From an uncultured Alphaproteobacteria bacterium (lineage in GTDB: Bacteria; Pseudomonadota; Alphaproteobacteria; RF32; CAG-239): 64,000 nucleotides of DNA. The notes beneath the pieces are model-generated. The model was not told the origin of the DNA. It did no database searches and was given only the letters and a program-made list of their open reading frames with translations. Below, piece after piece: positions 7,133 through 58,145 of this stretch. Each line of letters begins with the position of its first letter. The stretch's first letter is position 1. Where the stretch lies: positions 42,480-106,479 of the forward strand of contig CAKQPS010000001.1 of the NCBI GenBank assembly GCA_934270475.1, given 5' to 3'. Made by a program: the position numbers and the translations under genes.

Positions 7133-7208
7133 AGGGGTATAGCTCAGTTGGTAGAGCATCGGTCTCCAAAACCGAGTGTCGTGAGTTCGAATCTTACTGC
7201 CCCTGCCA
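7133..7208 (+). tRNA. trnW: tRNA-Trp (anticodon CCA)
   Basis: Cloverleaf is readable: acceptor AGGGGTA/TGCCCCT, D-arm GCTC-AGTTGGTAG-AGC, anticodon loop CT-CCA-AA, T-arm GTGAG-TTCGAAT-CTTAC, 3' CCA encoded. Confidence 0.9.
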
Positions 7209-37801: not shown

Positions 37802-38773
37802 TTACTCTGAAAGTTTTTGCACTAGCTCAGCCATATCTGAAGGCAGTTCAGAATCAAACTGCATAAACTTTTGCGTGCGAGGGTGAACAAACCCCAAACT
37901 CTTTGCATGCAAGGCTTGCCGCGGAAAATCATTTACATAATTTTTTAGATTTTGCGGCAAATTAACAGCTGTTTTATGGTTCTTTACATAAACTTTGTCA
38001 CCGACCAAAGCATTTCCTACACTTGTTAGGTGTACCCGAATCTGGTGAGTGCGTCCGGTTTCCAAGTTGCACTGCACTAAAGAAACCGCATTTTTAAACA
38101 CTTGCAGTGTTTTGTAATGCGTAACTGCAGGCTTGCCGCCACTGGCTACCAACGCCATTTTTTTGCGGTCAGCCGGACTGCGCCCTATATTGCCGTCAAT
38201 TCGTCCGGCAAGCGGATTAGGCACACCGTAAACCACCGCATAATATGTGCGCTCAATTGAATGTTCGGCAAACTGTTCACTTAAAAAACGATGGGCATTG
38301 TCATTTTTTGCCACCACCAGCAAACCGCTGGTTTCGCGGTCTATGCGGTGCACAATGCCGGGGCGTTTGACCCCGCCGATTCCCGACAAACTGTCCCGAC
38401 AATGGAATAATAAGGCGTTAACCAGCGTTCCACGTGAAACACCGGCGGCAGGGTGAACAGTCATACCTGCCGGTTTGTTAACCACCAATAAGTCGCTATC
38501 TTCATAGACCACTTCCAAAGGAATATCCTCGGCAAGCGGCTCCGCCTCTTCTGCCGGAGGCACGGTAACCGTAAACGAATCGCCGACTTTTACTTTATAG
38601 GAATTGTCAGAAATAACAACATCTTCCGCCAGCACATTGCCGTCGGCAATCAACCGCTGCAGCTGCGAACGGGAAAAAACCGGCAGCACCTTTGCCAAGA
38701 ATTTATCTAAACGCTGCTTTTTATCGCTATCAGTCACTTCCGGAGTGGAAAATATTGTTTCTTCCATATTCAT
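37802..38773 (-). CDS. rluD: 23S rRNA pseudouridine synthase RluD (RluA family)
   Basis: N-terminal S4 domain; catalytic HRIDRETSG motif. Confidence 0.85.
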   Translation of the reverse strand: MNMEETIFSTPEVTDSDKKQRLDKFLAKVLPVFSRSQLQRLIADGNVLAEDVVISDNSYKVKVGDSFTVTVPPAEEAEPLAEDIPLEVVYEDSDLLVVNKPAGMTVHPAAGVSRGTLVNALLFHCRDSLSGIGGVKRPGIVHRIDRETSGLLVVAKNDNAHRFLSEQFAEHSIERTYYAVVYGVPNPLAGRIDGNIGRSPADRKKMALVASGGKPAVTHYKTLQVFKNAVSLVQCNLETGRTHQIRVHLTSVGNALVGDKVYVKNHKTAVNLPQNLKNYVNDFPRQALHAKSLGFVHPRTQKFMQFDSELPSDMAELVQKLSE

Positions 38774-38874
38774 TTTTAGCCTTTGTTAAGTATCTTTAAG
38801 TTATATTGTATAATTAAATGGTCTTGCCGCTAAATGCAAGTAAAGATTCTGCAAATATTCGGGAGTGTAAAAAC

Positions 38875-39888
38875 ATGGCAAACAGCGATGTGATGGAAGA
38901 TGATGACTTTGAAAAACTGTTAAACAGCTTTATAAATGATTCTTTGGAAGAAGAATCGGCTGAAAAAGCTTCGTCTATGCCGGCGGAAGAAAAAATCAGC
39001 CAACTTAAAAACAATCAAAACAATGACGGCACTGCCGAAGATGATGATGAATTGCAAGAAGATGAGATTGACTATGCTTCTGCTTTGAGTCCAGAAGACC
39101 AAGCAGTTAATAACTTTATTTCGCAAAACGATATGGACGACGCCTTAGTTTCTTCTTTGCAAGACGCCAAAGCCGAAGCTCAAAATGCCCAAGAAGAACC
39201 GACGCTCGGCAATGATGAATCTGAATTGGCGCAAGCCTTTATGAATTATTACAACTCCGTAAATAAACTGTCGTTGACTAAACTAAACACTCCGTATATG
39301 TGCACGTTTTCGGTTGAAGACCTTTACCCGAACTATAAACCAAGCGTGGGACATATTCTTACTAGCGATATTGCCGCCGGCTGGGTATTGCTGTGCAAAA
39401 TGTTTCCTGAACAAGTAGGAACATTTCCGCTTAACTCCAGCGATGAAGAATTTTTGAGCTTTGCAGAAAAACTGACTGACAATGATTTGCAGCTGGCAGT
39501 TATTTCATATGTTGAAATTTTAATAGACATAGAAGGGTGTGAATTAAGCTATCAAGCTAAGTTTTTAAAATATCAGGAAAAACACATCAAGCGTCTTATG
39601 TATGAAGAATATATGAACCGCAAAGAAAGACAGCGCAAATTTACCGAAGCTTTAGCGGCAAAAAATTTTCCGGTAGACGCAGACAGGCTGATAAGCAATT
39701 ATTTTAGAGTGGCGCAAAAAGACGTTGACGGCGCGTTTAAGGCGTTAACCACCAATCCAGCGATTTTTGCCCCGATTGACTTCAGCAAAATAAAACCGCG
39801 CTGGTTTGGCTTGGTAAAAGTATCACCAAAGGACGGTATCCGCATAAATTTGGAAATCGGTAACTTTTTGAAAAGACTCAAAGTTTAG
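38875..39888 (+). CDS. Hypothetical acidic protein (operon gene A)
   Basis: ATG with upstream GGAG; D/E-rich N-terminal ~150 aa then a globular C-terminal domain; no known motif. Confidence 0.5.
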   Translation: MANSDVMEDDDFEKLLNSFINDSLEEESAEKASSMPAEEKISQLKNNQNNDGTAEDDDELQEDEIDYASALSPEDQAVNNFISQNDMDDALVSSLQDAKAEAQNAQEEPTLGNDESELAQAFMNYYNSVNKLSLTKLNTPYMCTFSVEDLYPNYKPSVGHILTSDIAAGWVLLCKMFPEQVGTFPLNSSDEEFLSFAEKLTDNDLQLAVISYVEILIDIEGCELSYQAKFLKYQEKHIKRLMYEEYMNRKERQRKFTEALAAKNFPVDADRLISNYFRVAQKDVDGAFKALTTNPAIFAPIDFSKIKPRWFGLVKVSPKDGIRINLEIGNFLKRLKV

Positions 39889-39960: not shown

Positions 39961-41928
39961 ATGGCTGATAACAAGCAAGAAGAAATGCAATTGAAAAAAG
40001 CGGCTAATCTCTTTTTAAAGGCAGTAAAAGAAAACGCCTCCGACAAAAAATTTTCGGAATTGCTGGCTAAAAATCCCAAATTGTTAGTATCTAAGGAATT
40101 TACGGATAAATTGTTTCCGAATCAAATGACAAAACAGAAAGGATTTGCTTCTTTAGACAAAATGATGATGAACATCAGCAAAGTAAAAGAACTTGCCGAC
40201 AAAGGCATTATCAGTTCGGAACAACTTGAAACATTTATGGAATCCAGCCATTCGCAAACCGGTGAGACTTTTGCCACCGCTGCCGCTCAGCAAGCTGAAG
40301 CCGCCAAAGAAAAAGCAAATCATGAAAATCCTTCTTTTTCGGAAGAAGGAAAAAACAAGCTGTCGGATAATTTGCAAAACTATGAAGACTGTTTGGAAAA
40401 AATGGAAGAACTCGGCGTACCGATGGATTTGCCAAACCGCGCCGGAAAAAATGCGAAAGATATATATTCTAAAAACGCCGAAGACAGCAAAGATTTCGCA
40501 AATGCTCTGCAGGTCAGCATTGAAGACAACAGCAATGAAAAAGGAAATTTGGAAATAGACGGCGAAGCGCTGAAAGTTAAGGTTGAAGAAAAACCGGTTG
40601 AAGAAAAACCGGTTAAAGTAAATGTTGCGGAAGAATCTAACAAAAAAGAAGAAGATGAAGTCGACGCCGATGTTACAAAAGCTCCGAAAGATGATTCCGC
40701 TAAAAGCGGCAATTCTGACATCGATCTTGTAAAAGAACAAGACATTATTGATTATATGTATAACCAATGGTTCTTAGCATCTGTGAATTGGACAATTCGC
40801 AAAGGAGTCCGCTGGTCTGATAACAAAGTGGACAACCTGTGCGAAAAATTTGATAAAAAATGCATGGAAAACAGCAAAAATAAAGAAGAAAAACAGAAAA
40901 ACAGAGTCAGTGAATTTCAAAAAGGCGGACAATATCTGCTGACCGACGGTGCTAAAAAATTAAGAGACGGTTACTCGGTTGATAAAGATAAAAGACTGGC
41001 AATGTGGAAAGAAGTTGCCGCTAACTTAGGCAAAGACCCGCAGACTTGGACGGTTTTGAATCCGAAAAACGACAAAACTAAGCAATTTATCTGCATGATA
41101 AATACCGAATACAAGCAAGACCCGCAGCATTGCACCAACAAAGTTAAAGGCATTATTCAAAATTATGATAAAAATCAAGATGAAGAAACTCAGCTTTATG
41201 CTTTAGCCGTTGAGCTGGCTGCCACCGAAATAGCCTATGAAGGAATGGGCAGCGGACGTGCCAAACGCGGAGTGCAATTCCAATATAACTTGGGCGATTT
41301 AACCGCTAAAGAGATGGATACAAAGCTAAAAAAGAGAACTATAGAAAAAACCAAAGAATTGCTGGAAAACCTTGAAAAATTACAATTATTTGCAGAACTA
41401 AAAGCAGCTCAAGAAGGCATAACTGATAAAGAAAAGATTGAAAAAGCAAAAGGCGATTTTATCAAAGTATATCTTGATACTTTATCCGATAAAACCATTG
41501 ACTGTCAGAAAAAACTGCTGAAAGATTTGAATGAAGAAAACTTCAGCCGCGCCAAAACCGGTGTTATAAAAGACTTATTCAATAAAGGACTGTCTAAAGA
41601 TTCTATTGAGAGCTATTCGGCTATAAAAAAGCTTAAAAACATTGATAACTTAGGCTATTCTGTACTTGTTAAAGGGCACAAGGACGAAATTAAAGACTTG
41701 CGGGCTGATGCAGTAGAGCGCCTTACAAAATCTCCGCTAGATGAGTTAAATGACAAGTTCAATAGAAAAATGCAACAAGAGACCACTTCTCAGGAAGAGC
41801 ATAATTCCCGCGAAACTAAATTCAGACAGCTGAAAAAAGAAATACTGAGAGGTGAAAATTCCGGTAAAATATTGAACGACAAAAATAATGGCTTAAACAA
41901 TCTTTGGAAAACATCGCAAGGACGCTGA
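39961..41928 (+). CDS. Hypothetical Lys/Glu-rich coiled-coil protein, 655 aa (operon gene B)
   Basis: GGAG RBS; long ORF with a strong codon periodicity; internal EEKPVEEKPV repeat. Confidence 0.55.
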   Translation: MADNKQEEMQLKKAANLFLKAVKENASDKKFSELLAKNPKLLVSKEFTDKLFPNQMTKQKGFASLDKMMMNISKVKELADKGIISSEQLETFMESSHSQTGETFATAAAQQAEAAKEKANHENPSFSEEGKNKLSDNLQNYEDCLEKMEELGVPMDLPNRAGKNAKDIYSKNAEDSKDFANALQVSIEDNSNEKGNLEIDGEALKVKVEEKPVEEKPVKVNVAEESNKKEEDEVDADVTKAPKDDSAKSGNSDIDLVKEQDIIDYMYNQWFLASVNWTIRKGVRWSDNKVDNLCEKFDKKCMENSKNKEEKQKNRVSEFQKGGQYLLTDGAKKLRDGYSVDKDKRLAMWKEVAANLGKDPQTWTVLNPKNDKTKQFICMINTEYKQDPQHCTNKVKGIIQNYDKNQDEETQLYALAVELAATEIAYEGMGSGRAKRGVQFQYNLGDLTAKEMDTKLKKRTIEKTKELLENLEKLQLFAELKAAQEGITDKEKIEKAKGDFIKVYLDTLSDKTIDCQKKLLKDLNEENFSRAKTGVIKDLFNKGLSKDSIESYSAIKKLKNIDNLGYSVLVKGHKDEIKDLRADAVERLTKSPLDELNDKFNRKMQQETTSQEEHNSRETKFRQLKKEILRGENSGKILNDKNNGLNNLWKTSQGR

Positions 41929-42476: not shown

Positions 42477-43985
42477 GTGAAATCCTTAATTGTCTTTGCA
42501 AGAATAATTATCGTGGGGTGCCTATGGAGCATTGTCTTCGTAGAGGGCATTCGCGTAATTATGCTCTGCAACTGGCACTTTGATATTTTTTGGCCTGATC
42601 ACTGGCGCCAAGCCTATGCGCTGTGGAAAGCGGGCTGGGTAATTCGCGCGCCTAAAGAATGGGCTTTTGTGATTATTCTCGTGACATTTTTCCCAATGCT
42701 TATCACTGGTTGGTGGACGCTGTGCATGGTGGCGTGGGAACGCATTATATATGACATTATAATGTCGCCGATTATGCTTTACCGCCGCTTGATTAAAGCT
42801 CCTATCAATGTGATTAAAACCAACAATAAATACGGCGTGGTAAAGAAAAAATCATATAAACAGGTACGCCCTGCCGGTGTTGGTTTCAGAATGCCTATTT
42901 CTGATTATTCCGACAATAAATCGGCAGCTCCGGTAACGGCTGGCGTGGGCGGCAACGCGGTTTTGCCATCGCAAGTCCGTCAAGTTCCAACAGCCCCGAG
43001 CGCCTCGGCGCCAGCGGCGTCTAAAACAGCAAGAAAAACCGACATTCCGTCAACTATCGACCATGCTTTATTCAAATTTGATGATGATGACGATGATTTT
43101 GATTTGGATATAGATTCTTTTGAAAAAGCCGATATCTTAAAGAAAAAAGAACCGGCAAAGCCAAAAAAACCTCTGTTTGATGATGATGACGATGAAGATG
43201 ACGAGGATTTCCAGCCGCGCAAAAATAAACGCGATGACGACAGCGGCTCTAAGCGTTCGGCGAAAAAACCTGTTTTTGATGATGACGATGATGAAGATGA
43301 CGAGGATTTCCAGCCGCGCAGCAACAATCGCCGCAACAACAAAAACGACCGCAATTCTGACAATGGCGGCAAAGACCCGCGGCAGAAAAATAACAAGCAA
43401 AATCGTACAGATTCCAAAGCGGACAAGTCTAACCGCGGCAATAAACAAAACAACAGCTCTGATGATTCTGATGAGGCTAATACTCCGCACAGTCCGGTTT
43501 ATGACAGCCTGCAGCAAAAAGGCTACGACGTTATCGCCGGAGTTAATGTCAACAACACTGTGATTGACTTTGTCGGCGTTTCCGAAACAGAAATCTGTTT
43601 GTGTTTGGTAGACAAGGAAAACGGCGACTGGTTGGCTGATGAAGAATTGTTTAACGGCGAAGAGCCTCTGTGGTTTTCAGAAAACAGCCATAGAATTTCA
43701 CCGGTACGCAAATTAGATGTTGCGCGCAATGTGATTCGTGATAAACTTGCCGAAGAAGACTTTGAGCAAGAAGTTAAATCTTATGTGGTGGTGCAAATGG
43801 CAAACATTATCAATGCCGACGATATGTTTGAAGTTTGGAATAAAATGGATATTGAAGTAACTAGAATCAACCGCGGCGCACCGAAAGAAATTCATCTGTT
43901 TTCAAAGTCGCTTGATGAAGCCGACGGACAAATCGACCACAAAGAACTCAACCGTTTGCGCAAAGTTTTAAAAAACATTAAATAG
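42477..43985 (+). CDS. Hypothetical inner-membrane protein with D/E-rich tandem repeats and a C-terminal globular domain (operon gene D), translationally coupled to the T4CP
   Basis: GTG start with GGAG RBS; ~110-aa N-terminal multi-TM region, low-complexity linker with the repeat FDDDDDEDDEDFQPR, then a ~170-aa C-terminal domain; stop lies 8 nt before the next start. Confidence 0.6.
   Translation: MKSLIVFARIIIVGCLWSIVFVEGIRVIMLCNWHFDIFWPDHWRQAYALWKAGWVIRAPKEWAFVIILVTFFPMLITGWWTLCMVAWERIIYDIIMSPIMLYRRLIKAPINVIKTNNKYGVVKKKSYKQVRPAGVGFRMPISDYSDNKSAAPVTAGVGGNAVLPSQVRQVPTAPSASAPAASKTARKTDIPSTIDHALFKFDDDDDDFDLDIDSFEKADILKKKEPAKPKKPLFDDDDDEDDEDFQPRKNKRDDDSGSKRSAKKPVFDDDDDEDDEDFQPRSNNRRNNKNDRNSDNGGKDPRQKNNKQNRTDSKADKSNRGNKQNNSSDDSDEANTPHSPVYDSLQQKGYDVIAGVNVNNTVIDFVGVSETEICLCLVDKENGDWLADEELFNGEEPLWFSENSHRISPVRKLDVARNVIRDKLAEEDFEQEVKSYVVVQMANIINADDMFEVWNKMDIEVTRINRGAPKEIHLFSKSLDEADGQIDHKELNRLRKVLKNIK
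43163..43332 (+). repeat. In-frame tandem DNA repeat (~99-bp unit, 2 copies plus a partial upstream copy) encoding K-P-x-FDDDDDEDDEDFQPR
   Basis: AAAAAACCTsTkTTTGATGATGAyGAyGATGAAGATGACGAGGATTTCCAGCCGCGCA is seen twice. Confidence 0.6.
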
Positions 43986-51600: not shown

Positions 51601-52515
51601 CTATCTTTGTTCTAATATATCTAAAATTGAGCTTAATTCAGCCGGTGTGTTATAGTGCAATGTTATACTACCTTTACCTTTTTTTCCAGCATTTATTTTA
51701 ACTTTCAGCTTTAATTTTTCTTCCAAATCCGCCATAATTTTTTGCAAATCCAAATCCACCGGTTTAGGCTCTTTTGGCGTGATATTGTTTACGGTTATTC
51801 CTTTGGCATTGGCAGCTAAGGTTTCTGCCTCACGCACGCTCAAGCCTTCTTTAACAATTTTGTTTGCCAGCTCAACCGCATTTTCGCAGCCAATCAAAGC
51901 GCGGGCATGACCGGCTGAGAGCTTATTTTCTTTTACCAGCTGTTTAATTTCTTCAGGCAAGCTAAGCAAACGCAAAGTATTGGCTATATAGCTGCGTGAT
52001 TTACCGATAACTTTGCCAATAATTTCCTGCGTATATTCATATTCATTCATTAAGCGGTTCAAGCCTTCAGCTTCTTCAATAGCCGAAAGATTTTCACGCT
52101 GCAGGTTTTCGATTAAAGCAATCTCTAAAGTTTCGCTGTCTGACAAATCTTTTACAATTGCCGGAACTTTATCTAATCCGGCAAGCTGAGCGGCGCGCCA
52201 ACGGCGTTCACCGGCAATAATTTCATATTTATCATTTTTCTTACGAACCAACAGCGGCTGTAAAACACCTTTCTCCTTAATTGATGCGGCTAAAGATTCC
52301 AAAGCATCGCGATCAAATTCCGTACGCGGCTGGAAAGCACACGGTATAATATCAGCGACTTTTATTTCATTTGAATTTTCTTTTTTAAATACAGTGTTTT
52401 CAACCAAGCTTTCAACATCTGCGGTCTCATCATCTAAATTCAGGTTTATTTCTTCATCACCAAGCAGCGCTTCCAAACCGCGACCAAGACCAAATTTTTT
52501 ATTATTAGTGTTCAT
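51601..52515 (-). CDS. parB: Chromosome partitioning protein ParB
   Basis: GERRWRAAQLAG ParB box and HTH; 304 aa. Confidence 0.85.
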   Translation of the reverse strand: MNTNNKKFGLGRGLEALLGDEEINLNLDDETADVESLVENTVFKKENSNEIKVADIIPCAFQPRTEFDRDALESLAASIKEKGVLQPLLVRKKNDKYEIIAGERRWRAAQLAGLDKVPAIVKDLSDSETLEIALIENLQRENLSAIEEAEGLNRLMNEYEYTQEIIGKVIGKSRSYIANTLRLLSLPEEIKQLVKENKLSAGHARALIGCENAVELANKIVKEGLSVREAETLAANAKGITVNNITPKEPKPVDLDLQKIMADLEEKLKLKVKINAGKKGKGSITLHYNTPAELSSILDILEQR

Positions 52516-53283
52516 CTACAACTCCTTTTCTCTTTTTAAAACTTCTTTTGCCAGCTGAATATAGGCTTGCGCACCAGCGCTTTTAAAATCATAAATCAAA
52601 ATCGGCTTGCCATGCGACGGAGCTTCAGCAATTCTCACGCTTCTTGGAATAACCGTTTGATAAACTTTGTCGCCAAAATATTTACGCACATCAGCCTCTA
52701 TCATTTGGCTAAGATTGTTTTGTTTGCTGTACATTGTGAGAATAATACCCTGCAAAGTCAAAGCTGGATTAAAATTACGCTTGATAGCATTGATATTTTT
52801 CATTAAATCCGCTAAGCCTTCCAACGCTAAAAATTCGCATTGCAGCGGAACCATTACCGAATTTGAACTAACCAGCGCGTTAATAGTAATTAAATTCAGC
52901 GACGGCGGGCAGTCAATCAGCACATAATCATATACTGCCTCTAAGCTGCTCAAAGCTTTTTTCAGCACAAACTCGCGCTTTTCAACTTCTACCAATTCAA
53001 TTTCGGCAGCAGCCAAATCCGGTGAGGACGGTATCATATCAAATCTCGGCAAATCGGTATGCAAAATCGCCTCTTTGACATCGCACTTGCCAATCAAAAC
53101 ATCATAGGAAGAATAGTTTTCTTTTTGCTTGGCTATTCCCATAGAAGTTGTAGCATTGCCTTGCGGGTCAAAATCTATGACCAGCACACGGCGCCCGATT
53201 GCCGACAAAGCTGTAGCAATATTGATTGTTGTTGTTGTTTTTCCCACACCGCCTTTGCGGTTTGCAACAGATATTATTTTCAT
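52516..53283 (-). CDS. parA: Chromosome partitioning ATPase ParA
   Basis: Deviant Walker A NRKGGVGKTTT; 255 aa. Confidence 0.85.
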   Translation of the reverse strand: MKIISVANRKGGVGKTTTTINIATALSAIGRRVLVIDFDPQGNATTSMGIAKQKENYSSYDVLIGKCDVKEAILHTDLPRFDMIPSSPDLAAAEIELVEVEKREFVLKKALSSLEAVYDYVLIDCPPSLNLITINALVSSNSVMVPLQCEFLALEGLADLMKNINAIKRNFNPALTLQGIILTMYSKQNNLSQMIEADVRKYFGDKVYQTVIPRSVRIAEAPSHGKPILIYDFKSAGAQAYIQLAKEVLKREKEL

Positions 53284-53927
53284 TTTCTAGTCACCTCTGT
53301 CAAACAAAAAACATAGCCTTCTTTTCCACGTTCAACTTCAAACGGGCGGGCATAAAAGTTTTCAAAAATATCTACGCTCATATTCCACTTTTTATCTGCC
53401 TCTTCCAATTCTGCCATACCGGTATGACCTTTCGGCAAAACATATTCTGTATTTTTAGAACACAAACCAGTTGTGCAAGCTAGAATTTTATCAATTGAAG
53501 CCACAGCGCGGGCAGTAATGTAGTCAACATTTTTAAATACAACGTTTTCAGCTCGATTATTTATAACTTCGACATTTTGCAAATTTAACCGCTGACACAC
53601 GTCTTTTAAATATACCGTCTTTTTAGTTATACTTTCAATTAAAACAACTTTAGCCGCTGGAAATTTCTCTGCCATAGCAATAGCCAAAACAACTCCGGGG
53701 AAACCGGAGCCGCTGCCGACATCAACAAGCAATTTCACATCATCTCGCAGATAATCTATCAGCTGCAGCGAATCTAACACATGGCGCAATTCTAGTTCTT
53801 TTTCAGCATTTTTACTGACTAAATTTATTTTTTGATTCCATTCCAAAAGAATTTGCATAAAATCTTTCAATTTTTGCAATGTTTCACGTGAAACATGATA
53901 ATTTAAAACTTCTTCATCAAAATTCAT
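53280..53927 (-). CDS. rsmG: 16S rRNA m7G527 methyltransferase RsmG (GidB)
   Basis: SAM motif VGSGSGFPGVVLAI; 215 aa; synteny with mnmG. Confidence 0.85.
   Translation of the reverse strand: MNFDEEVLNYHVSRETLQKLKDFMQILLEWNQKINLVSKNAEKELELRHVLDSLQLIDYLRDDVKLLVDVGSGSGFPGVVLAIAMAEKFPAAKVVLIESITKKTVYLKDVCQRLNLQNVEVINNRAENVVFKNVDYITARAVASIDKILACTTGLCSKNTEYVLPKGHTGMAELEEADKKWNMSVDIFENFYARPFEVERGKEGYVFCLTEVTRK
53880..53895. repeat. 16-bp perfect palindrome TGTTTCACGTGAAACA, copy 1 (inside rsmG; extends to the 18-bp ATGTTTCACGTGAAACAT)
   Basis: Exact string match to the copies at 55130 and 57963. Confidence 0.8.
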
Positions 53928-53993
53928 TTTGTACCTCTAAAGACAGAGTATAGATTATTTGCTTTTTATGCAACAAAATATAATGGTTATTAA

Positions 53994-54836
53994 CTAAAAC
54001 TTTAAACGATTTTTTATGCCAAACCGCGATAAACACGCTTCAGCTAAATCAAATCTATCGCCGAGTTCGGAAACAGCGTGTGCATCATCGCTGATAACAA
54101 ACTTTATATTGCGTTCTGCCGCGGCAGCTAAAATTGTTTTACACGGATAAAAGTCTCCGATTTTACGCAAACCTTTGGTGCTTATCTCCATTGGTCTATT
54201 TTGTTTTTGCAAAACATCTAATATCTCAAGTTGTTCAGGCAGATAATTTTCCGGCACATAAATTCCGTCACCAAGCTTACGAGCATAATCAATATGGGCT
54301 AAAAATTTAAATACACCGCTTTCAACAGCTCTTTTAATAGTTTTAAAGTGACGGTATAAAAATTCCTGCTGCATTGAATAGTCAGAATATAGAATCGGCA
54401 AATCATATATATCAAAAAGATTTTCGCATTTTTCATCAAACAGCATATGATTACCAGTGATGACATAATCATAATCTAGTTTACTCAAAAAATCTTTAAA
54501 TTCTTCCAACCAACCGTCATAGGTAAAGAAATCAACCTCGAAGCCGATATATAGTTTTATACTTTCTGTTTTTGAAAGTTTGCGGATTTCCTCACAGTGT
54601 TTTTGAAATTCCGGCAAAGCTGCTTTAAAATCATTTTTAAAAATATGGTCGTTGCCGCGTTTTTTCCATAAGGGACAAGACAAACTTTGCTGCATATTTT
54701 TATGAATACAAAGATGGTCGCTAATTCCGAGTTCACAAAAGCCCAAAGACTTTGCTTTAGTCACCATTTCTTCTAAAGAGTTTTTGCCGTCCGAAAAATT
54801 TGTATGCGTATGATATGAAAAATTTTGCACCATCAT
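53994..54836 (-). CDS. PHP-domain phosphoesterase (histidinol-phosphatase-like)
   Basis: [10 protein letters not shown]-terminal metal-binding motif and C-terminal DDAH; start overlaps the mnmG stop (ATGA). Confidence 0.65.
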
Positions 54837-56677
54837 TTTTTTATGTATCCCAATATAGCAGTTACAGCTGCCGGAGTTACACCTTTTATACGAGATGCCT
54901 CACCGATAGTTTTAGGCTTAACTGCACTAAAACGCTGTATCATTTCCGTAGAAAGTCCACCGATTTTAGAGTAGTCTATATCATCGCTGATTTGCAGATT
55001 TTCATCACGTTTAAATACAGCGATATCTTCATATTCACGTTTCAAATAGCCCGAATACTTAGCATTTATTTCAACTTGTTCGAAAATATCGTCTTCTATG
55101 TTACTGCTTTCAGGTGCAATTTTAGATATTGTTTCACGTGAAACATCTTGATAGCCCAGCAGGTCTTTTAAGGTCTTTTTACCATTATGCTTAACCGTAA
55201 TTCCTAAAGATTCAATTTCAGGATAAGAGATAAATTTGCAGGAACAATACTCATCAAACTTTTTGATTTTTTCCTCTTTATTTTTAAATACAGTGTATCT
55301 ATTATTTGAAACACAGCCGATATTATAACCAAGTTCGGTTAAACGCGCATCTGCATTATCTGCCCGCAGCACCAAACGATATTCAGAACGAGATGTAAAC
55401 ATACGGTATGGCTCATCAACACCTTTGGTAATTAAATCATCAACCATAACGCCGATATAACCTTGACTGCGGTCAATTGTAAATTCCTTGCCGCGGTTAA
55501 GAGCGAATAGCGCAGCATTAACGCCAGCAAGCAATCCTTGGGCAGCAGCCTCTTCATATCCAGTTGTGCCGTTAATTTGCCCTGCCAAATAAAGACCTTT
55601 AGACTTTTTAACCGCTAAGCAATGGTCAAGTTCTTGCGGATTTACATAGTCATATTCAATTGCATAGGCGTATCGCAGAATCTCAACATTTTCCAATCCC
55701 TTCATTGTATGAATAAATGCGTCTTGCACATCAGCCGGCAACGATGTAGAAATACCGTTCGGATACACAACATTTGTTTCATACCCCTCAGGTTCCAAAA
55801 ATATTTGATGCGATGTTCTATCGGCAAAACGAACAAGTTTATCTTCAATACTTGGACAATAACGAGGTCCTTTTCCCGTAATCAAACCAGAAAATAATGC
55901 GCACTTAGAAAAATTATCCCTAATTATTTTATGTGTCGCCTCATTTGTATATGTTACTCCGCAATCAATTTGGCGGTTGTGCAGTTCTTTAGTTAAAAAA
56001 GAAAACGGAACCGGATTTTTATCACCGGACTGCTTCTCTAAAATATTCCAATTTATAGTGTCGCCGTTTAAACGTGACGGCGTACCGGTTTTTAAACGTC
56101 CAAGCTGCAAACCGAGAGATTTTAAATACGGTGTTACACCTGTGCAAGAAATATCGCCGACACGACCGCCGATTGAAGTTTGGTGACCGGTAAACATCAC
56201 ACCATTTAAAAATGTGCCAGTAGTTAAAACTACAGCCTTGGCGAAAATTTCGGTTTCATCAGCCAGCTTTACACCGCAGACATTGTTATCTTTTATCAGC
56301 AAGCCTTCAACAGCACCTTCTTTTAATTCCAAATTTGGAGTTTCTTGCAGTGCTTCAAGCATATATTTTTTATATAAACTTCTATCAGCTTGAGCTCGAG
56401 GTCCTCGAACAGCAGGTCCTTTAGATAAATTCAGCATTCTAAATTGAATACCTGCTTTATCAATAACACGCCCCATTAAACCATCCAAAGCATCTACTTC
56501 GCGCACCAAATGCCCTTTTCCCAATCCGCCGATAGCTGGATTGCAAGACATTTCGCCGATTGTTGAAATTTTATGCGTAACAAGCAGCGTTTCAGCACCA
56601 GTTCGAGCTGCAGCAGCACAAGCTTCACAGCCGGCATGACCACCGCCGACAACAATTACATCAAAAGTATTCTTCAT
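54833..56677 (-). CDS. mnmG: tRNA uridine-5-carboxymethylaminomethyl modification enzyme MnmG (GidA)
   Basis: FAD motif [13 protein letters not shown]; start taken at MKNTFDV with AGAGGAAAAAATG RBS. Confidence 0.9.
55130..55145. repeat. 16-bp perfect palindrome TGTTTCACGTGAAACA, copy 2 (inside mnmG)
   Basis: Exact string match. Confidence 0.8.
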
Positions 56678-56801
56678 TTTTTCCTCTAAAATTTTTCTTA
56701 CACTAAAGCACAATTCTATAATAAATGCAAATCAAAATACGCTGCATACATTTAAATACAGCGTATTTTTATACATAAAATTTTAAATACAGCGTGTTTT
56801 G

Positions 56802-58145
56802 TTATTTACCAATACAAAAACTACTGAATATTTTATCAAGAATCTCATCTACTTCGACCTGACCAGTAATTTTTCCTATTGCCCGACAGGCTAAACGAAT
56901 ATCTTCGGCAGACAACTCTATTTCTTTTTGCAAATTAAAACGCTCTAAATTTTCCAAACATTCTAGAAGCGATTCTTTATAACGCTGACGGGTTATCAGC
57001 TGAGCCGAGCTTTTTTCATACATATTTTGGAAGGTTTCATAAATTTTATCAGTAATCGCATTTATGTTTTTATTTTCTTTAGCCGAAATTAAAATACAAC
57101 CTTCAGCCTGCAACTTTTTTTGCTGTTCCGGTGATATTTTATCCATTTTATTAGCAATTAAAGCATACGGCACTTTTACTGTCTTTACATATTCAGCAAA
57201 AATTGCCGAAGCGTCTTTTTCTGCATCAAACATAAACAAACAAAAATCAGCTTCTGCAATTTTATCTTTTGCAAGCTTGATGCCTATTTGCTCAATTTCA
57301 TCATCAGATTCACGCAGTCCGGCTGTGTCAGAAAAAATTACCGGAAAACCTTTTAAGTCAACATAAGCTTCTATGACGTCGCGCGTGGTTCCGGCAATAT
57401 CCGAAACTATTGCGATATTCCTTTTGACAATCGCATTTATAAGGCTTGACTTTCCGGCATTGGTCGGTCCGGCGATAACCACCTTAAACCCCTCGCGCAG
57501 ACGCTCTTCAACATTATTTTGCTGCAAATGCGTTTTAATTTCTTTTGCCACTTTAAATACACCGTTTTCAATTTTTTGCACAGTATCTTGCGGGATATTC
57601 TCATCAGGAAAATCGATATAAGCTTCAATATAAGAAAGGACACCAACCAAACGTGTGCGCCAATCATTATACAAATCAAACAAAGTTCCGCCCATTTGCT
57701 GCAAGGCAACCTTCTGCTGCAAAGCGGTTTCGGCGTCTATCAAATCTGCCAAGCCATCGGCTTCCGTCAAATCCATTTTACCGTTATAAAATGAGCGGCG
57801 GGAAAACTCCCCTGGTTCTGCTAAACGAAAGTTAGGCAAGTTAGAAAGAGCTTCCAAAAAACTGCGGATAACAGCTTTTGAGCCATGACAGTTTATCTCT
57901 ACGGTATCTTCACCGGTAAACGATGCCGGAGTTTTGAAAGCAACAAGCAATGAATTGTCTAATGTTTCACGTGAAACAGGATTATAAAATTTAGTCAAAT
58001 ACATTTTGCGGCTGACAATTTTTGCAGCATCTAAATCCGTCATTTTTGAAATAATCTCAAAAGCGCTTGTTCCGGAAACACGAATCACCGCAACACCGGA
58101 TTTACCAAAAACCGTAGATAAAGCATAAATAGTTTTGTTGTCCAT
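56802..58145 (-). CDS. mnmE: tRNA modification GTPase MnmE (TrmE)
   Basis: G1 GPTNAGKSSL; C-terminal CIGK; 447 aa. Confidence 0.9.
   Translation of the reverse strand: MDNKTIYALSTVFGKSGVAVIRVSGTSAFEIISKMTDLDAAKIVSRKMYLTKFYNPVSRETLDNSLLVAFKTPASFTGEDTVEINCHGSKAVIRSFLEALSNLPNFRLAEPGEFSRRSFYNGKMDLTEADGLADLIDAETALQQKVALQQMGGTLFDLYNDWRTRLVGVLSYIEAYIDFPDENIPQDTVQKIENGVFKVAKEIKTHLQQNNVEERLREGFKVVIAGPTNAGKSSLINAIVKRNIAIVSDIAGTTRDVIEAYVDLKGFPVIFSDTAGLRESDDEIEQIGIKLAKDKIAEADFCLFMFDAEKDASAIFAEYVKTVKVPYALIANKMDKISPEQQKKLQAEGCILISAKENKNINAITDKIYETFQNMYEKSSAQLITRQRYKESLLECLENLERFNLQKEIELSAEDIRLACRAIGKITGQVEVDEILDKIFSSFCIGK
57963..57978. repeat. 16-bp perfect palindrome TGTTTCACGTGAAACA, copy 3 (inside mnmE)
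   Basis: Exact string match. Confidence 0.8.

Follow-up and report, generated by a model that had tools for sequence, protein, structure and literature searches.

Palindromes inside RNA-modification genes beside parAB of an uncultured gut alphaproteobacterium: very probable parS sites of a chromosomal ParABS system

What keeps one and the same perfect 16-bp palindrome, TGTTTCACGTGAAACA, within the coding sequences of several RNA-modification enzymes? The question is raised by a 64-kb stretch of DNA (the window; positions 42,480 to 106,479 of contig CAKQPS010000001.1, assembly GCA_934270475.1) from an uncultured Alphaproteobacteria bacterium, in which the palindrome is present in three exact copies starting at window positions 53880, 55130 and 57963. 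The copies are located in rsmG, mnmG and mnmE and are each translated as VSRET, in the peptide contexts HVSRET, DVSRET and PVSRET, respectively; a near-copy in rluD encodes VSRGT. A preliminary description of this DNA had pointed out the three copies, the near-copy and the involvement of all four host genes in RNA modification. Exact matching and family assignment (NCBIfam, and for rluD Pfam together with homologue names) agree with it, except that the near-copy had been drawn to position 38442 whereas the 14-bp match ends two positions earlier, at 38440. With high confidence, we read the three identical copies as parS sites of a chromosomal ParABS system, to which the rluD near-copy very probably belongs as well. 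The sites are as follows.

53880-53895: putative parS site 1, TGTTTCACGTGAAACA, exact match, within rsmG (nucleotides 33-48; codons 12-16 read as VSRET)
55130-55145: putative parS site 2, TGTTTCACGTGAAACA, exact match, within the 3' part of mnmG (codons 524-528 read as VSRET)
57963-57978: putative parS site 3, TGTTTCACGTGAAACA, exact match, within the 5' part of mnmE (codons 57-61 read as VSRET)
38426-38441: probable parS site 4, degenerate, CGTTCCACGTGAAACA on the plus strand, within rluD (read as VSRGT, in the context GVSRGT)

The palindrome is a 16-bp inverted repeat matching the parS consensus TGTTNCACGTGAAACA. A review presents this consensus as a palindromic parS that is highly conserved on the primary chromosomes of bacteria, and also gives the perfect palindrome TGTTTCACGTGAAACA as the parS of Hyphomonas neptunium, an alphaproteobacterium (PMC7022226). 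A study of mycobacteria reports the same perfect palindrome, identical to the parS of Bacillus subtilis, with one copy at the 5' end/promoter of gidB (rsmG) and another within the coding sequence of parA (PMC2346475). The sequence, and its occurrence inside such genes, are thus already described, and the window adds no new biology in this respect. The earlier suggestions of selection at the level of DNA and of a dyad marking a protein-binding site both stand, the latter now with a probable identity from the parS consensus beside parAB; what had been overlooked were the adjacent parA and parB genes and the consensus itself.

The repetition is not random. In dinucleotide-preserving shuffles of the window, the expectation for TGTTTCACGTGAAACA is 0.03 matches at up to two mismatches and 0.35 at up to three, and none of 100 shuffles reached four matches at up to two mismatches. 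Beyond the three exact copies and the rluD near-copy, the window holds no further match to TGTTTCACGTGAAACA with up to three mismatches, and these same four sites account for four of its five CACGTG hexamers. All four lie within 38.4-58.0 kb and none in 0-38 kb, and relatives show a like clustering around parAB. Codon usage points the same way: given the peptide VSRET, the codons GTT-TCA-CGT-GAA-ACA have a joint probability of 0.0025 per site under the usage of the window, where TCA is the rarest serine codon (12%) and ACA covers 22% of threonine, in keeping with the earlier remark that the codon choice was improbable by chance. The shared reading frame, which had also been taken as evidence, has little to say. 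The palindrome reads alike on both strands, as C-F-T-stop, V-S-R-E-T or F-H-V-K, and since the first of these frames holds a TGA stop, coding DNA is limited to VSRET or FHVK. With just two of three frames usable, the agreement of the three sites is unremarkable (about 1 in 4) and is weak evidence.

The setting of the three perfect copies is a string of co-directional genes in the order mnmE-mnmG-(PHP phosphatase)-rsmG-parA-parB, which is that of the classic origin-proximal gid/par cluster. The start of parB is 1.4 kb downstream of site 1, and the genes are closely packed: rsmG and parA overlap by 4 bp, and the parA frame ends 1 nucleotide before the parB start. The genes, with rluD farther off, are these.

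56802-58145, minus strand: mnmE (NCBIfam match well above the curated cutoff)
54833-56713, minus strand: mnmG (NCBIfam match well above the curated cutoff)
53994-54836, minus strand: HisJ-family PHP phosphatase gene (TIGR01856, 98.8 bits against a cutoff of 90.2)
53280-53927, minus strand: rsmG (NCBIfam match well above the curated cutoff)
52516-53283, minus strand: parA (soj), Walker-type partition ATPase, 255 amino acids, with KGGVGKTT
51601-52515, minus strand: parB, partition protein, predicted to be CTP-dependent and parS-binding, 304 amino acids
37802-38773, minus strand: rluD, RluD-type pseudouridine synthase (Pfam S4 and PseudoU_synth_2)

A ParA/Soj ATPase with a deviant Walker A motif thus adjoins parB, and its sequence aligns with solved ParA at E = 7e-78 and with the Soj proteins of Helicobacter pylori and Thermus thermophilus at E = 1e-66 to 1e-61. 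The ParB scores 196 bits against TIGR00180 parB_part (cutoff 58) and matches solved Spo0J/ParB structures at E = 1e-55 to 1e-46, including Caulobacter ParB 6T1F and H. pylori ParB 4UMK; it conserves the N-terminal LGRGLEALL, the motif GERRWRA (a CTP-binding motif of the GERRxRA type) and the helix-turn-helix (HTH). The DNA preference to be expected of it can be read from the work of Jalal et al., in which four interface residues set the preference for parS over the Noc-binding site (NBS), these being R173, T179, A184 and G201 in Caulobacter ParB and Q, K, K and R in Noc, and in which parS and NBS half-sites differ at positions 1 and 6. Window and Caulobacter ParB (6T1F) align without gaps across the DNA-binding domain, and residues R163, T169, A174 and G191 of the 6T1F chain correspond to the published four by spacing (6/5/17) and identity, at a numbering offset of 10. 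The window ParB has R, T, S and G at these positions. The parS-contacting equivalents of R173 and G201 are therefore kept, with T and S, not the lysines of Noc, at 179 and 184, and the protein is predicted to be a parS-type ParB. Assignment as a Noc acting on NBS was considered, noc being the top-scoring NCBIfam model for the protein, yet at 239 bits it falls below the cutoff of 315; the specificity residues are not Q, K, K, R, and the site sequence is that of parS.

Whether the DNA or the peptide is the conserved entity was examined in 80 parB-anchored loci, one genome per species, collected with ParB as query and taken as 20-kb stretches (1.46 Mb in all). The closest ParB among them (89% identity) comes from a Hadza gut metagenome-assembled genome (MAG) of an "uncultured Alphaproteobacteria bacterium", and the next four relatives are gut or rumen alphaproteobacterial MAGs at 62-68% ParB identity. 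The exact 16-mer is found in 35 of the 80 loci and a copy with up to two mismatches in 43; loci with the 16-mer span Alphaproteobacteria, Clostridia, Bacilli, Bacteroidota and others. As a rule the sites lie upstream of parB, at a distance of up to about 5 kb, and in some cases inside parB itself, and in other genomes the 16-mer occurs intergenically, in other genes or within parB. A sequence that tracks parB across phyla in this manner is best described as a predicted ParB binding site and not as a feature of RNA-modification genes. The link to RNA modification that had been proposed does not hold up: the nature of the hosts is a by-product of the conserved origin-proximal order mnmE-mnmG-rsmG-parA-parB.

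Orthologues of RsmG, MnmG and MnmE, aligned to the window proteins and read at the VSRET column, lead to the same view. Those that read VSRET all use the TGTTTCACGTGAAACA DNA despite differing flanking codons; within the site even synonymous positions stay fixed, whereas the flanks drift. In RsmG, the same DNA is present at the same position in the loci L001, L002, L005 and L007 and is absent, with unrelated peptides in its place, from L003 and L004; site-less RsmG orthologues read IGEQE or ISEAE. The site of this protein lies N-terminal to the conserved domain, the TIGR00138 match beginning at residue 21. In MnmG, identical DNA occupies the orthologous position in L001, L002, L003 and L005, and more distant, site-less orthologues read VKREV, VSVSR, VTVAN or LNYDL. 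The MnmE site is kept in L001, has decayed to TGTTTCACATGAAACA (VSHET) in L005 and is absent from all other orthologues, the site-less ones carrying gapped, unrelated peptides (-DGEL, CG-EI, PEDEK). Across the 1.46 Mb of loci, 166 of the 170 six-frame reads of VSRET are the parS core (palindromes counted on both strands). When a long open frame is defined heuristically as at least 120 codons from stop to stop, 32 of the exact sites fall in such a frame as VSRET, 16 as FHVK and 24 in none. Conservation is thus at the level of DNA and independent of coding context. Since site-less orthologues carry other peptides and VSRET is nearly always the parS core, the DNA dictates the peptide, not the reverse. 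The preliminary description had named two outcomes that would speak against it, VSRET encoded by varied codons and identity through codon bias alone; neither was found when the orthologues were compared, and its view of a non-random repeat selected as DNA is borne out by shuffles and orthologue columns alike.

Two side observations concern the turnover of such sites. Their positions differ even among the relatives with 62-68% ParB identity. Decayed parS copies (L005 at 4284; the rluD locus of L087; the proteins P0006, P0010 and P0023) show mostly transitions at the central CpG, with CACGTG to CACATG seen in DNA and the change of R to H or C deduced from peptides; the pattern fits a turnover of sites by mutation of the CpG.

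The copy in rluD, 13.2 kb beyond the stop codon of parB, requires separate treatment. On the gene strand it reads TGTTTCACGTGGAACG, and it matches the 14-bp core GTTNCACGTGNAAC without mismatch at 38427-38440; variants with GGAAC adjoin parB in many Firmicutes loci. Homologues of the host are annotated as 23S rRNA pseudouridine1911/1915/1917 synthase. Within the clade, 23 of 26 RluD proteins (P0001-P0025 and that of the window; homologues 79-96% identical) contain GVSRGT, whereas RluD homologues at 77% identity or less, and that of L002, read GAY[HNSD]GT. For the window and four clade homologues, the DNA could be compared. Gene-wide identity to the window is 70-80% and 9 of the 11 codons just upstream of the site vary synonymously; the core GTTTCACGTGGAAC is identical in four of the five genomes, two of which have an outer base giving TGTTTCACGTGGAACA, and the fifth reads TGTTTCACATGAAACA. 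An invariant core amid synonymous drift of the flanks argues for a DNA-level constraint on the rluD site. Transitions at the central CpG can be deduced from the variant RluD peptides VSCGT and VSHGT, and for a VSHET homologue the CAT is directly seen at that codon. Collectively, these features make the rluD copy a probable fourth parS, slightly degenerate, which would have originated in this clade. A perfect palindrome is out of its reach, since the Gly-Thr of the conserved motif G-T-L-V-N-A-L is needed. As an observation apart, the site lies inside a longer imperfect palindrome, CCGGTGTTTCACGTGGAACGCTGG (38416-38451, minus strand), for which an RNA fold of -15.1 kcal/mol is predicted; it looks incidental, since its flanking bases vary in relatives.

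Several points weigh against the assignment as parS, or against parts of it. The rluD copy has two mismatches to the perfect palindrome and is absent from the more distant relative L002, so that its affinity and use are uncertain. The NCBIfam matches of the parA product (ParA, MinD and RepA families) are all below the equivalog cutoffs, even though its structural matches are strong. No oriC was found in the window, where the GC skew shows no sign switch and DnaA boxes form no cluster, and we infer origin proximity solely from gene order and skew direction. Plus-strand GC skew is negative throughout the window and the genes here point leftward. Skew direction and gene orientation together place oriC on the mnmE side, as is usual, to the right of mnmE and probably beyond the window. 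DnaA-box-like 9-mers (TTATCCACA, up to one mismatch) number 24 against an expected 14.2 +/- 3.8 and are dispersed across the window.

Among the other explanations, the one deserving most attention would add to the centromere role instead of replacing it: ParB bound inside the genes could also regulate transcription of mnmE-mnmG-rsmG-parAB, by roadblock or autoregulation. It finds some encouragement in the rsmG site, which is placed 33 nucleotides past the start codon, just downstream of a 66-bp gap with a weak promoter-like match (53977-54006, minus strand, 9/12), and which is kept across distant alphaproteobacteria; moreover, regulation of gidB-parA in mycobacteria has been proposed for ParB bound to a parS that overlaps with the promoter of gidB (PMC2346475). 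Promoter-like matches are, however, at shuffled background (3 vs 1.5 +/- 1.3), and site positions turn over fast, the mnmE site being found only in the closest relative and the sites of L003 and L004 elsewhere, which fits a need for sites near parAB and not at particular genes. We regard such regulation as unlikely, though worth bearing in mind. Still more doubtful is its extension whereby ParB clamps might throttle the tRNA/rRNA-modification genes together with parAB and so link the state of chromosome segregation to how the translation apparatus is tuned; in a related idea, the long-lived site in the N-terminal part of RsmG might be held at its exact spot for autoregulation. Selection for a functional peptide VSRET shared by RNA-modification enzymes, combined with codon bias, has hardly any probability left. 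RNA as the common substrate of the four host proteins and the single frame shared by the four sites had made it attractive, but the codons used are disfavoured (the joint probability given above), the RsmG site is outside the conserved domain, the peptide is not kept in site-less MnmG, MnmE and RsmG orthologues, and the same DNA elsewhere is intergenic or read as FHVK. Other peptides where the site is missing, disfavoured codons and VSRET reads that are nearly all parS DNA led us to reject it.

Other roles suggested in the preliminary description were recognition by restriction or methylation enzymes, folding into an RNA hairpin and signalling in DNA uptake. CACGTG, or the longer palindrome, as the target of a restriction-modification system or orphan methyltransferase is very improbable. 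The PmlI-type core and the strong avoidance of other 6-bp palindromes in the window invite the idea. However, the hexamer occurs 5 times against 6.3 expected (1 against 4.5 with the four sites masked; maximal-order Markov model), the conservation covers 14-16 bp and not 6, and the 16-mer tracks parB across phyla, unlike a strain-specific target. Dinucleotide shuffles had hinted at depletion of CACGTG outside the sites; with the hexamer neither over- nor under-represented in the Markov model, the candidate was dropped. Quite separately, the avoided palindromes (observed/expected under the maximal-order Markov model: ATTAAT 1/21.9, GAATTC 2/16.8, CTTAAG 0/7.7, GATATC 9/23.4, CATATG 6/16.8) suggest a pressure in this lineage from restriction-modification of the AseI/VspI, EcoRI and AflII types. 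It is equally improbable that the palindromes act as messenger RNA hairpins and thereby govern how the host transcripts are translated or degraded: each site can form a stem of 6-7 bp with a 4-nucleotide loop, but for the three perfect sites the predicted stability is weak (-4.7 to -5.6 kcal/mol), and this weakness was the ground for rejection. In addition, the primary sequence is invariant and shows no covariation, although RNA would tolerate compensatory changes, and in other genomes the same DNA is found in untranscribed or oppositely oriented contexts. The Rfam scan recorded no known RNA family at the palindrome sites. For a DNA-uptake signal, nothing was found in support.

Chromosomal parS sites of a ParABS system remain by far the most probable identity of the palindromes, and the mechanism to be expected can be outlined by analogy with characterised ParABS systems, from which we infer binding, spreading, segregation and SMC loading at this locus. 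ParB dimers would recognise each 16-bp dyad through their HTH domains, then bind CTP, close into a clamp and slide or spread onto adjacent DNA. The region of 38-58 kb (roughly 20 kb), which contains all the sites, could so become one nucleoprotein partition complex, which nucleoid-bound ParA-ATP would pull, along with the origin region, into each daughter cell; loading of SMC condensin, a further activity usual for ParB complexes, may also take place here. The high gene density of the region accounts for the placement of the sites within coding sequences. Codons would be fixed by selection at the DNA level, and protein parts tolerant of the change would merely read VSRET.

In its sequence and layout, with the same 16-bp sequence in copies around parAB, the proposed system resembles Spo0J/Soj-parS of B. 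subtilis and ParAB-parS of Caulobacter, Hyphomonas and Mycobacterium; copies within coding sequences, among them one at the 5' end of gidB/rsmG in mycobacteria, are likewise known from chromosomal parS. Nothing substantive sets it apart from these, only the lineage-specific set of host genes (mnmE, mnmG, rsmG, rluD) and the degeneracy of one site. In the nucleoid occlusion system Noc-NBS of the Firmicutes, to which Noc is restricted (Jalal et al.), a paralogous protein of the ParB family likewise binds a 16-bp palindrome; the window ParB scores below the noc cutoff. P1 parS, F sopC and the parS of Burkholderia chromosome II (gTTTATGCGCATAAAc; PMC7022226) follow the same logic of repeated ParB sites beside a parAB operon. 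The centromeres of plasmids and secondary chromosomes are replicon-specific, however, whereas the window sites would be of the universal primary-chromosome type. The value of the assignment is in annotation: in an uncultured alphaproteobacterium of the gut, the sites would mark the centromere and hence the origin-proximal domain, and they offer an explanation for the recurrence of VSRET (or FHVK) in unrelated proteins encoded near parAB. A constraint on DNA would thus be written into protein sequence, with rluD as the compromise with the essential Gly-Thr of RluD.

Some minor observations concern the surrounding genes. The HisJ-family PHP histidinol-phosphatase-like gene separates mnmG from rsmG, with a 4-bp overlap at the mnmG stop; the insertion is unusual, the mnmG-rsmG pair being conserved otherwise. 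The open reading frame (ORF) of mnmG as listed begins with a TTG start and a 12-residue extension (56678-56713, minus strand), and the MnmG model matches from residue 17; translation probably begins at the ATG of residue 13 instead (MKNTFDV...). Large ORFs flank rluD (38818-39888 and 39961-41928, both plus strand; no Pfam match recorded in same-species contigs) and mnmE (58286-60223 and 60284-60850, both minus strand), and these lie inside the presumed zone of ParB spreading. A 655-residue ORF is rich in Lys and Glu, and its region has a strongly positive AT skew (0.285 at 40-42 kb). Far from the palindromes, a single tRNA gene (7133-7205, plus strand) is the only Rfam match of the window.

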